A stretch of DNA of 64,000 nucleotides, from NCBI GenBank assembly GCA_944376845.1, contig CALWDZ010000001.1:66863-130862 (forward strand), read 5' to 3'. The DNA comes from an uncultured Clostridia bacterium. GTDB lineage: Bacteria; Bacillota; Clostridia; Christensenellales; UBA1242. A program made the position numbers and the translations under genes. Position 1 is the first letter of the stretch, and each line of letters opens with the position of its first letter. The notes beneath the pieces were generated by a model that was given only the letters and a program-made list of their open reading frames with translations, was not told the DNA's origin and made no database searches. Below are positions 39,391 to 39,860 of this stretch, one piece after another.

Positions 39391-39482
39391 TTGGCGAGTA
39401 GCGGAATGGTTATATCCACCATTTCGTTACACCCCCCTTAAATATTAATTCAAGACAAAGCCAGTCTTTAAAACTAAACCGA

Positions 39483-39525
39483 TGGAATGTAGCTCAGCCG
39501 GTTAGAGCACCACCCTGATAAGGTG
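39483..39525 (+). pseudogene. 3'-truncated tRNA-Ile(GAU) copy 1 (acceptor 5' strand, D arm and anticodon arm only)
   Basis: 43 nt identical to 39684-39726 of the intact gene, plus a shared CCGA leader. It diverges after ...GATAAGGTG. Confidence 0.85.
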
Positions 39526-39583
39526 TGCAAACAACTTTTGACTACACTCTTCGAGAGTCAGAAAACTCGTTAAAACAGACCGA

Positions 39584-39626
39584 TGGATTGTAGCTCAGCC
39601 GGTTAGAGCACCACCCTGATAAGGTG
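39584..39626 (+). pseudogene. 3'-truncated tRNA-Ile(GAU) copy 2
   Basis: 43 nt with one mismatch (GGATTG versus GGAATG) relative to 39684-39726. It diverges at the same nucleotide as copy 1. Confidence 0.85.
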
Positions 39627-39683
39627 AATTTGACCACTTTGAGCACATCGATGACAGTTGATAAAGTCACTAAAACAAGCCGA

Positions 39684-39760
39684 TGGAATGTAGCTCAGCC
39701 GGTTAGAGCACCACCCTGATAAGGTGGGGGTCGGTGGTTCGAGTCCACTCATTCCAACCA
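39684..39760 (+). tRNA. tRNA-Ile (anticodon GAU) with encoded CCA
   Basis: Hand-folded structure:
- acceptor TGGAATG/CATTCCA
- D arm GCTC-AGCCGGTTA-GAGC
- anticodon arm CCACC-CTGATAA-GGTGG
- variable loop GGGTC
- T arm GGTGG-TTCGAGT-CCACT
- discriminator A, then CCA

The U1-A72 first pair is unusual. Confidence 0.85.
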
Positions 39761-39766
39761 GTGAAT

Positions 39767-39793
39767 GAGTGGCAAATTGCCACTCGTTTTTTT
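39767..39793 (+). terminator. Intrinsic terminator immediately after the tRNA
   Basis: GAGTGGCA-AAT-TGCCACTC, then G plus T7. Confidence 0.75.
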
Positions 39794-39845
39794 ATTTTCC
39801 CCACCTTAATGAGCATAAGCGAATATAAATAATTTCATCGGTCGA

Positions 39846-39860
39846 CACTCATTCCAACCA
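39846..39860 (+). repeat. 15-nt direct repeat of the tRNA 3' end (att-like scar)
   Basis: CACTCATTCCAACCA is identical to 39746-39760 and lies exactly 100 nt downstream. The preceding TCGGTCGA looks like a deleted T arm. Confidence 0.8.

Follow-up and report, generated by a model that had tools for sequence, protein, structure and literature searches.

The locus analysed here raises the question of why one functional tRNA gene should be preceded, at an almost constant interval, by truncated copies of itself. In the 64,000-nt stretch of DNA under study (the window), positions 39483–39760 hold two 43-nt 5′ portions of tRNA-Ile(GAU) followed by an intact tRNA-Ile(GAU) gene. The half-copies most likely derive from earlier tRNA genes into which elements inserted, splitting them and bringing a replacement tRNA, and the array would then be a record of past invasions. 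Serial integration by tyrosine integrases of ICE/IME elements, with crossover in the anticodon arm, is in our estimate the explanation of the array with a probability of about two in three. The array is probably not a new RNA gene, and nothing suggests a new class of functional RNA.

Organization of the array

The array and its leader comprise the following features.

39362–39391, + strand: sigma-70-type promoter-like site (TTGACA, 18 nt, TATACT; 11 of 12 matches to consensus)
39401–39427, + strand: conserved leader hairpin GCGGAATGG / ACCATTTCG, then ACACCCCCC; host chromosomal leader
39453–39482, + strand: leader motif copy 0, consisting of hairpin AGAC..GTCT, TTAAAAC and about 8 nt (..CCGA), directly 5′ of tRNA position 1
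39483–39525, + strand: orphan 5′ portion no. 1 of tRNA-Ile(GAU), positions 1–42/43, acceptor allele TGGAATG
39526–39583, + strand: spacer type B, with a 26-nt "head" that contains a TTCGAG vestige, the leader-motif hairpin (39552–39569) and TTAAAACA (39570–39577)
39584–39626, + strand: orphan 5′ portion no. 2 of tRNA-Ile(GAU), acceptor allele TGGATTG
39627–39683, + strand: spacer type A2, with head AATTTGACCACTTTGAGCAC.., hairpin (39652–39669) and CTAAAACA (39670–39677)
39684–39760, + strand: intact tRNA-Ile(GAU), acceptor TGGAATG/CATTCCA, identified by ARAGORN and Rfam

The first-pass annotation of this DNA had described three starts at periods of 101 and 100 nt, and halves of 43 nt with 0 and 1 mismatches and a common break. 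Both descriptions hold. A repeat search gives start-to-start spacings of 101 and 100 nt, TRF reports a period of 100 with 2.6 copies and 83% matches, and the 37-mer GTAGCTCAGCCGGTTAGAGCACCACCCTGATAAGGTG has three exact copies in the window (39489, 39590 and 39690), where 100 shuffles give an expectation of none. Both half-copies stop after ...GATAAGGTG, which is tRNA position 42, and the sole difference between unit 2 and the gene is at acceptor position 5 (TGGATTG vs TGGAATG). The repeat is not homogeneous in the manner of a VNTR; the tRNA parts are 98–100% identical, the spacers 64%, and the heads match at just 14 of 26 positions.

ARAGORN calls a single tRNA in the window, tRNA-Ile(GAU) at 39684–39760, and leaves the units at 39483 and 39584 uncalled. 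The intact gene has an Rfam tRNA score of 70.4 bits. With 22.7 and 24.7 bits, the upstream units stay under the gathering score of 29 bits, so that by cloverleaf call and gathering score only 39684–39760 is a functional tRNA gene. No Rfam family except tRNA reaches its gathering score in the window or in the relatives' loci (labelled L001, L051, etc.), apart from HPnc0260 in L026 (61.7 bits, above threshold; 47.9 bits in the window, below threshold), and the source of the HPnc0260 matches is the antisense tRNA part of that model.

Leader and spacers

The promoter-like site would direct transcription through the entire leader into the tRNA. Relatives L001, L003 and L134–L137 have this promoter and leader too, and the leader hairpin at 39401–39427 is kept in L001, L003, L005, L041, L051 and L126. 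The leader motif precedes every unit as well as many single tRNA-Ile genes of the lineage, and its stem covaries. The TTCGAG vestige (39550–39555) and the TAAAAC..CCGA motif 5′ of each start, both pointed out previously, are present. Consensus scans find one promoter and no terminator before 39763, and the halves may plausibly be transcribed together with the tRNA.

Spacers B and A2 are identical at 37 of 58 positions, above all 500 shuffles and mainly through the 3′ 32 nt, and neither of them has significant similarity to a real tRNA 3′ half. Their origin is instead suggested by relatives. Spacer B, together with the TGGATTG half or gene that follows it, recurs in L005, L051 and L065, and the order TGGATTG, spacer A2, TGGAATG recurs in L013, L042, L114 and L136. 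Spacer B is probably element-derived, representing an attP arm and the leader of the element's tRNA. Similarly, orphan portion no. 1 would be a remnant of the original chromosomal gene, the TGGAATG allele of the first unit being common to all syntenic relatives, and orphan portion no. 2 is probably the retired 5′ half of an earlier imported tRNA-Ile; in L051, the intact gene next to the integrase has the allele TGGATTG/CAATCCA.

Three other readings of these segments were tried and rejected. A promoter inside each spacer (in type A1: TTGCTA, 17 nt, TATATA) has an unconserved −10 position and is absent in the window. The head is unlikely to derive from the downstream terminator through recombination of the inverted core copies, as the reverse complement of 39727–39798 is by eye unlike any head. 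Finally, the leader hairpin with TAAAACA has what we take to be a resemblance to boxA; this reading was set aside, and there is no rRNA nearby.

Region downstream of the intact gene

The segment that follows the intact gene contains a second set of features.

39763–39789, + strand: terminator-like hairpin 1 with T run, homologous to L001 6813–6860
39799–39808, + strand: inverted anticodon-arm copy CCCCACCTTA, the reverse complement of TAAGGTGGGG
39810–39845, + strand: decayed downstream-cassette remnant, with "gagcataagcgaat" derived from the motif GAGCGAAGCGAA and a variable/T-arm piece that has collapsed to tcggtcga (judged against L001, L026 and L070)
39846–39860, + strand: orphan tRNA-Ile 3′ end CACTCATTCCAACCA, remainder of a displaced 3′ half that is complete (42 nt) in L001
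39865–39889, + strand: terminator-like hairpin 2, found directly 3′ of the intact tRNA in L051 and L046
39890–40083, + strand: module of repeated GGCACAGG-type 10–16-mers, with an inverted pair at 39924–39963
39953–39968, 40055–40070 and 40067–40082, + strand: direct copies of the GGCACAGG-type repeats

The inverted copy at 39799–39808, also noticed in the first-pass annotation, opens the downstream cassette in many relatives, with equal position in L001, L026, L041, L082 and L086. The 15-mer CACTCATTCCAACCA does recur at 39846–39860 as reported (three hits are reached in 0 of 100 shuffles), but its offset of exactly 100 nt from the gene is coincidental, because the homologous downstream segment measures 176–346 nt in relatives and the window's copy is, on sequence comparison, a deletion derivative that lacks approximately 89 nt relative to L001. 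The proposal of one promoter-to-terminator unit applies to the halves and the gene and does not extend to the 15-nt scar, which lies beyond the first of the two terminator-like hairpins.

The GGCACAGG-type repeats look like integrase arm-type sites. Positions 39846–40083 are 80–88% identical to L001, L051 and L046, and the homology ends there; in L051 the integrase stop codon comes after the repeat module, where the window has unrelated DNA. No integrase or integrase remnant was found in the window by tblastn, and with the integrase gone the locus would be a fossil site, tied to the integrase family through the 240-nt downstream module.

In relatives, some upstream units and some downstream cassettes have a GC-rich insert of about 52 nt, with a covarying stem, in their anticodon loop. 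Units with this insert, and the small downstream cassettes of 176–346 nt, are outside the detailed reach of the integration model described below.

Distribution and turnover among relatives

Comparison with orthologous loci, proposed at the outset as a check, showed that half-copies recur in relatives in varying number. Orphan 5′ units are present in about 40 of the 117 species-representative gut Clostridia MAGs that have tRNA-Ile(GAU), in a search that allowed up to four mismatches and is biased to conserved copies. All units break at tRNA positions 40–45, within the anticodon arm, and 45 of 51 are 100–102 nt long. Orphan 3′ halves begin at positions 35–38. The 5′ and 3′ boundaries thus overlap, and the sequence common to both is ATAAGGTG of the anticodon loop and stem, where anticodon-centred integrases cross over (PMC4383910).

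The number of units is 0, 2 or 3 in different strains of one species. The flanks of the window (two units), L001 (none), L003 and L136 are 96.6–98% identical, and those of L051 and L139 are 100% identical around different arrays. For L001, in which the downstream cassette is present and upstream units are absent, a secondary deletion has to be assumed. Some tRNA-Ile units, including those of type P, are plainly whole pseudo-tRNAs with a T arm, and units in L078 and L042 have Rfam scores of 29–45 bits. An orphan-plus-intact array of equal design adjoins a related ICE in an Anaeroplasma MAG. All data are from MAG or metagenome assemblies, and many contigs end at the array.

Integrases and acceptor alleles

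In relatives, a convergent tyrosine integrase (PF14659, PF22022, PF00589) is located 215–2160 nt downstream of tRNA-Ile, always on the far side of the intact gene. The family occurs at the tRNA-Ile locus in 13 species loci, and in L141, L143 and L144. The contexts are those of ICE/IME, one with a VirB4/TraG-like protein, ArdC and a methylase, and another with a MobL relaxase. Eight orphan-bearing loci have the integrase and four do not, compared with 5 and 31–39 of the orphan-free loci, respectively (Fisher p = 0.0003–0.001, in a test that ignores phylogenetic non-independence).

Within synteny groups, the most upstream half has the acceptor allele of the lineage, and a foreign allele is frequent in the intact terminal gene. 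L143 is an example: its two orphans have AGAGATG, the allele of seven syntenic relatives, and the intact gene adjacent to the IME is AGGATTG/CAATCCT. The spacer tail is coupled to the allele 3′ of the spacer, and Ile and Thr genes have the same tail in front of them. L044 and L068, which both adjoin integrases, have chimeric tRNAs with mismatched acceptor strands, and on this evidence the stand-alone locus may be dispensable. At Ile as well as Thr loci, a 5′ half with the host allele is fused to non-tRNA or decayed 3′ sequence, and the host tRNA is left unreconstructed. In L039 and L144, the elements look closely related and the heads differ, so that a strict linkage of head to element does not hold.

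Among these loci, no tRNA-Ile element was recovered in full, with its two ends. The IME of L143 (about 6.5 kb) is the one apparently bounded element, and at its far end no tRNA fragment was found, only a shared 11-mer, AAAAACTTAAT (E = 0.17). Searches of viral contigs for an attP or free element (anticodon arm, type A junction, GC-rich motif) returned only phage tRNA-Ile or chance high-GC matches, and blastn against phages and plasmids returned tRNA-Ile only, with no excised or plasmid form.

A second target is tRNA-Thr(GGU). Next to related integrases at this gene, orphan tRNA-Thr 5′ halves or recognisable remnants are present in nine of nine loci, near-intact at a spacing of 100–102 nt in six and partial or decayed in three. 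The spacers contain T-arm relics and the AAAACTTAATAT tail that is also seen at tRNA-Ile. The integrase-proximal junction is visible in L153 and L159. In L147, at a distance of 9.7 kb from the integrase, arm repeats are succeeded by an orphan tRNA-Thr 3′ half, which begins within the anticodon loop, and then by a terminator.

Model of serial integration

Based on these observations, we propose that the locus is a worn attachment site of an ICE/IME family that targets tRNA genes with crossover in the anticodon arm. The attP would have no usable 3′ half and would consist of a decayed head, a short leader tail, and a complete but promoter-less tRNA of equal isotype that travels with the element. 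On integration, the resident 5′ half would be joined to the decayed piece, and the product would be a dead ~100-nt hybrid. The tRNA brought by the element would follow after about 57 nt and be transcribed from the resident promoter, and the resident 3′ half would be moved to the far end of the element. Each new integration into the currently intact gene would retire its 5′ half and add one 100-nt unit, and recombination between direct repeats may delete element bodies or units.

Applied to the window, the order would begin with the 5′ half of the host (TGGAATG) and continue with spacer B, a retired 5′ half of imported origin (TGGATTG), spacer A2 and the working gene, followed by a degraded cassette with the 15-nt orphan 3′ end and arm-site-like repeats, the integrase having been lost. 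The suggestion of stacked att scars, with recombination both within the anticodon arm and at the 3′ end, had been offered initially as a fallback; integrase association, alleles, the tRNA-Thr loci and the distal 3′ half all argue for it. Counting against it are the lack of any tRNA-Ile element recovered with both ends, the absence of a tRNA fragment at the far end of the L143 element, the missing integrase in the window and spacers there that do not resemble a tRNA 3′ half, the differing heads of L039 and L144, and the extra deletion needed for L001. A wider claim is that gut Bacillota harbour an undescribed ICE/IME module in which an attP with a dead 3′ half and a promoter-less tRNA about 57 nt from the crossover swaps the Ile-GAU or Thr-GGU tRNA of the host and takes over the host promoter. 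We regard the case for this claim as evenly balanced.

Alternative explanations

Purely local tandem duplication is one alternative. Slippage or unequal crossing-over would have copied a 100-nt segment, either the leader with positions 1–43 or a whole tRNA unit, and gene conversion against the working gene would have kept the 5′ parts identical as the remainder drifted, without any integrase. Such a process accounts for the 100-nt array seen by TRF; it is the simplest origin of the identical adjacent units in L024, L042, L087 and L160, and copy loss between direct repeats of 43–56 nt accounts for the difference between L001 and the window. However, foreign acceptor alleles in arrays and a foreign terminal gene in a lineage of uniform allele are left unexplained, as are the integrase association, the equal tRNA-Thr architecture beside related integrases, the spacer types common across species, and the Anaeroplasma array beside a related ICE. 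Furthermore, units within a single array vary at positions 16/17 of the D loop, which fall midway along the presumed conversion tract, and units coalesce with those of other species. Local duplication as the full explanation is unlikely.

The first-pass annotation favoured gene conversion or selection, with the halves as decoy, processing or regulatory RNA. As a selected, co-transcribed RNA, a half-tRNA could lure away an anticodon nuclease as a decoy, titrate IleRS or a T-box, or act as a processing or regulatory module. Positions 7–15 and 18–40 are invariant in 32 distinct units, the acceptor and D-loop positions 16/17 vary as in real tRNA, the spacer hairpin shows covariation (17 sequences with G-C, 15 with C-G and none with a broken pair), and one promoter without a terminator 5′ of the gene would serve the whole array. 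Selection is nevertheless unneeded, since a near-perfect half is expected if it was recently part of a working gene until its displacement, and the mismatch limit of the search itself favours conserved copies. Scrambled spacers are no sign of selection either, because they would be element-derived and differ between element subfamilies. The fit is also poor, because units come and go between strains and are missing from about two-thirds of the species, and because decayed units are common. The covarying hairpin with TAAAACA is an ordinary tRNA-Ile leader that is present without units too. The equal design at tRNA-Thr removes any tie to tRNA-Ile biology, and the decoy, T-box and IleRS-titration ideas were dropped after it was seen. 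We consider selected half-tRNAs quite unlikely.

Classical 5′-regenerating islands, a minority class with a displaced 5′ tDNA fragment, might have occupied the gap from each half to the following copy, their bodies later being deleted to leave about 57 nt. The Islander collection has 159 islands with a 5′ fragment compared with 3760 with a 3′ fragment (PMC4383910). The present fragments obey its configuration rule, as cognate end fragments lie in the same orientation with the 5′ ones upstream and the 3′ ones downstream, and their boundaries fall at one of the recognised crossover sublocations (anticodon loop, or T-loop/acceptor junction), here the anticodon one. Islander's integrase-bearing island of 2–200 kb between fragment and intact tDNA is absent, the window spacers being 57–58 nt; in about 125 tRNA-Ile loci, no island was found between a 5′ fragment and the next copy, with gaps of at most 155 nt. 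Independent deletions would not give 57–59 nt each time, and the position of the integrases downstream of the intact gene also speaks against this origin, which is improbable.

An assembly artefact in which reads of several co-occurring strains were mis-joined or collapsed, for which the metagenomic sources and the many relatives' contigs ending inside or just after the array could be cited, is highly improbable, as the junctions are found independently (leader to half in L134/L135; half, spacer B and TGGATTG in L005, L051 and L065; TGGATTG, A2 and TGGAATG in L013, L042 and L114) and the identical stretch of 43–56 nt is shorter than the final assembly k-mers of 127 or 141 given in several contig names.

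Comparison with known systems

Tandem remnants of this kind have two partial counterparts. The CIMEs of Streptococcus thermophilus ICESt1/3 have tandem att sites between integrase-less element remnants that are open to action in trans. CIMEs are kilobases long and are located at the 3′ end of a protein gene, whereas the remnants described here are 100–350 nt and mostly tRNA parts. The rtT repeats of Escherichia coli tyrT are 178-bp units, each with the last ~19 nt of tRNA-Tyr, and they share with the present array the tandem partial tRNA copies inside a tRNA transcription unit. In contrast, the rtT repeats belong to a single species, contain 3′ pieces that lie downstream of the gene, and are not known to be linked to integrases.

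Stacks of this type have practical consequences. They break metagenome assemblies, may give rise to chimeric "tRNA" genes in which the acceptor stem is unpaired (L044, L068), and can be misread as novel RNA genes or families of tRNA pseudogenes. If serial integration is correct, successive swaps leave an ordered stack of retired 5′ halves at ~101-nt steps, a chronology of invasions, and the order of the halves and their acceptor alleles becomes a readable history of element traffic. The module may also supply integrases with defined tRNA targets.

The tDNA fragments catalogued by Islander are similar in the use of tyrosine integrases, anticodon crossover (the "A" class), direct-orientation partial tRNAs and tandem events (PMC4383910). 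In Islander, the island normally rebuilds the gene and the displaced 3′ fragment lies at the far end (PMC4383910). The array differs from this in that 5′ fragments lie upstream, about 57 nt from the next copy and with no island between, in a fixed stack of ~101 nt.

Another related system is tRNA-dependent lysogeny, published for actinobacteriophages (Fionnbharth and others), with Lj965 of Lactobacillus johnsonii also mentioned. Those systems are phages, whereas the Ile and Thr elements are ICE/IME-like and known from sequence. In the Ile and Thr elements, the replacement tRNA would lie about 57 nt from the crossover without a recognisable promoter, transcription from the host promoter would reach it across the dead hybrid, and repeated events would leave a periodic stack. 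If this reading is correct, tRNA-dependent integration reaches from actinobacteriophages to conjugative or mobilizable elements of uncultured gut Clostridia and Anaeroplasma, in a tighter design where the attachment site itself contains the replacement tRNA and the host promoter expresses it. The array would accordingly be a variant of known att-scar and tRNA-dependent-lysogeny biology.

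Organization of the tRNA-Ile array

The tRNA-Ile(GAU) gene at 39684–39760 (70.4 bits in Rfam) is the sole tRNA that ARAGORN finds in the 64-kb window, and its first 43 nt are repeated upstream at 39483–39525 and 39584–39626, with start-to-start distances of 101 and 100 nt. A 37-mer from the D arm through ...GATAAGGTG is identical in all three copies, where chance would yield none; the array is real and far from chance. Both upstream copies break at tRNA position 42/43, within the 3' strand of the anticodon stem, and neither of the two units (orphan 5' half plus spacer) is called a tRNA by ARAGORN or Rfam. 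The spacers, 57–58 nt long, are 64% identical to each other, mostly through their last 32 nt, which hold a small hairpin followed by (T/C)TAAAACA and ..CCGA. Neither has significant similarity to the real tRNA-Ile 3' half.

Elements flanking the units and the gene
39362–39391, sigma-70-type promoter, 5' of the array
First element 3' of the intact gene, terminator 1
39799–39808, inverted copy of an anticodon-arm segment
Between 39799–39808 and 39846–39860, collapsed T-arm piece
39846–39860, last 15 nt of tRNA-Ile (scar)
3' of the scar, terminator 2
3' of terminator 2, block of repeated GGCACAGG-type words

The first-pass annotation described the array accurately overall, apart from two points. 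It placed the whole array between one promoter and one terminator; no terminator-like site lies between the promoter and 39763, but the 15-nt scar sits past the first terminator. It also stressed that this 3' end lies exactly 100 nt past the gene, an offset that is coincidental, the matching spacing being 176–346 nt in other species. The downstream cassette (39761–39860) aligns with that of the same-species locus L001, minus about 89 nt.

The setting is chromosomal. Genes for a class I aminoacyl-tRNA synthetase, a SpoU methylase, DegV and an XRE-type regulator lie upstream, and no rRNA or Rfam family other than tRNA was found in the window. The DNA 3' of 40083 is a low-GC stretch (0.28–0.30), a variable island at 40084–45500 with no counterpart in L001. 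Two further ORFs of the island have no Pfam match.

Genes of the island at 40084–45500
40451–40819, truncated DUF4143 ATPase fragment
41975–42508, sigma-70 region-4 protein
44512–45459, RHS-repeat protein

At the other end of the window, a single ORF of at least 3602 aa (2–10807, minus strand, open at the window start) probably encodes a giant surface protein, because it has a signal-like N-terminal segment and a highly repetitive sequence rich in Thr, Ser, Asn and Gly.

Spread and strain variation

Orthologous loci in close relatives were reached through homologues of the window XRE gene.

The array in close relatives, with identity of the flanks to the window
Window: two units followed by the gene
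L001 (96.6%): upstream units absent; a full-length orphan 3' half lies 191 nt downstream
L003 (about 97%): an interrupted unit plus two of other types; the gene after them has another acceptor stem (AGAGATG)
L136 (about 98%): a different arrangement again

Arrays differ even between two loci with 100% identical flanks (L051 and L139). A scan with the 37-mer, using one genome per species, gave 118 loci, all from uncultured gut Clostridia. At least one orphan 5' unit is present in about 40 of 117 loci, with five or more in one locus, and 45 of 51 units are 100–102 nt long. Spacer types (A, B, C, P and others) recur across species, each consisting of a variable 25-nt head and a tail coupled to the acceptor allele, i.e., the acceptor-stem sequence, of the next copy. 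Every sequence compared is a metagenomic assembly, and the contigs of several relatives terminate within the array.

The tail corresponds to a leader motif found in the window at 39453–39482, 39552–39583 and 39652–39683, and at many of the loci L031–L123. It comprises a hairpin of 4 bp with a 10-nt loop (GA[CG]AG.TG.TAAA[GC]TC) followed by (T/C)TAAAACA about 8 nt 5' of the tRNA, and its stem covaries (one pair is G-C or C-G, 17:15, with none broken). Since it also precedes many single tRNA-Ile genes of the lineage that have no half-copies, often after tRNA-Ala(UGC), it is an ordinary tRNA-Ile leader, nothing particular to the units, and possibly a processing signal.

Some pseudo-units carry a GC-rich insert of about 18–52 nt, with GAGCGAAGCGAAC, in the anticodon loop after CCCTG. 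It occurs in upstream units (L003 6756–6850; L015, L041, L042, L046, L078, L087, L091, L126, L127 and L136; in tandem in L087) and in downstream cassettes (L001 6900–6961; L026, L086, L095 and L098). Its stem covaries (AATCGC/GCGATT, AACCAC/GTGGTT, AACCGC/GCGGTT), and after the upstream inserts comes an inverted anticodon arm, ATAAGGTGG-NN-CCACCTTAT.

Association with integrases

At many loci a convergent tyrosine integrase (PF14659, PF22022 and PF00589) lies 215–2160 nt 3' of the tRNA, preceded by a terminator and repeated 10–12-mers that resemble expected arm-type sites. One host element is an ICE in an Anaeroplasma MAG, with a VirB4/TraG-like protein, ArdC and a methylase; another, at L143, is an IME that spans about 6.5 kb and encodes a MobL relaxase. 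In the Anaeroplasma locus (L141 11531–11912), tRNA-Ala(UGC) comes first, followed by an orphan half of tRNA-Ile, the intact tRNA-Ile gene and the ICE integrase; many Clostridia loci likewise place Ala ahead of Ile without being part of an rRNA operon.

In the subset of loci extending far enough downstream, an integrase accompanies 8 orphan-bearing loci and is absent from 4, as against 5 with and 31–39 without among orphan-free loci (Fisher p = 0.0003–0.001, kinship between loci ignored). Of the five orphan-free loci with an integrase, three hold a unit that is decayed or interrupted, or else just the leader motif. Head and integrase lineage do not strictly go together (L039 vs L144). Window positions 39846–40083 are 80–88% identical to the module before the integrase stop codon in L051, and homology stops beyond 40083; a search of the window for integrase remnants found none. 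No tRNA-Ile element was recovered whole, with its two junctions, and at L143 the distal end of the IME yielded no tRNA fragment.

When loci are grouped by common upstream flanks, the most upstream unit retains the acceptor allele of the lineage, and the intact terminal gene often has another. L143 is the clearest case: in seven syntenic relatives the only copy is an AGAGATG/CATCTCT gene, and L143 has two AGAGATG orphans and an intact AGGATTG/CAATCCT gene adjoining the IME. Five elements with an L093-type integrase, in different hosts, all adjoin this latter allele. At L044 and L068 the terminal "tRNA" beside the integrase has unpaired acceptor strands (AGAGATG with CAAGCCA and with CAATCCA, respectively). 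These genes are likely recombinant junctions, as mid-gene recombination of unlike copies would produce, and annotation pipelines would still call them tRNA. The 5' units end at positions 40–45 and orphan 3' halves start at positions 35–38, which fits one crossover region.

The same design at tRNA-Thr

An integrase-profile scan of metagenomes recovered loci where integrases with 33–38% identity to that of L051 adjoin tRNA-Thr(GGU). Orphan tRNA-Thr 5' halves or remnants lie upstream of the gene in all nine (L145, L146, L149, L150, L152, L154, L155, L158 and L160), near-intact and 100–102 nt start to start in six, partial or decayed in three. Each break falls in the anticodon arm (..TTGGTAAGG|AA or a like sequence), and the spacers hold T-arm relics and end in AAAACTTAATAT-like tails, as in type P tRNA-Ile units. 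At the far end of L147, 9.7 kb from the integrase, arm-type repeats are followed by an orphan tRNA-Thr 3' half, which begins in the anticodon loop, and a terminator; in L153 and L159 an orphan 3' half adjoins the integrase. Because these loci beside related integrases match, the architecture is a property of the integrase/element family and not of tRNA-Ile.

The sequence immediately upstream of the integrase shows 90–95% identity between L144, beside tRNA-Ile, and the tRNA-Thr loci L146 (intact gene) and L147 (distal 3' half), which hints that an integrase or attP module was exchanged between otherwise similar elements.

Proposed mechanism

The best explanation, with a probability of about 0.68, is a fossil integration site with a stack of retired tRNA halves. 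The anatomy and distribution of the units, their integrase association, the allele pattern, the parallel at tRNA-Thr and a single distal 3' half are direct observations; the route to them would be as follows. The attP head would be a decayed derivative of the tRNA 3' half, beside which the element would carry the tail, a short leader, together with a whole tRNA that has no promoter. A crossover in the anticodon arm would join the dead head onto the 5' half of the resident gene; the resulting hybrid pseudo-tRNA would measure about 100 nt, some 24 nt more than a tRNA. The resident promoter would then stand ahead of the element's tRNA, with the resident 3' half moved to the far end, and repeated integration would stack the units. 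Recombination between direct repeats of tRNA parts may remove units, converting a window-like into an L001-like locus, and may likewise remove element bodies; what stays behind would be cassettes, chimeras and small downstream remnants.

The contrast between conserved halves and scrambled spacers, from which the first-pass annotation argued for gene conversion or selection, is indeed observed, and serial integration would account for both sides of it: the halves are perfect because each belonged to a working gene until displaced, and the spacers differ because they derive from different element subfamilies. Local duplication with gene conversion is an unlikely source of the array, and a selected tRNA-like RNA slightly more so. 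Still less probable are deleted islands that had regenerated the 5' part of the gene. An assembly artefact is very improbable.

The relevance is moderate, for work on mobile elements and on tRNA gene annotation. A light literature search found no description of stacked tRNA 5' halves. The proposed mechanism shares its logic with tRNA-dependent lysogeny (PMC10865867) and combines it with the tDNA-fragment signature of genomic islands (PMC4383910).
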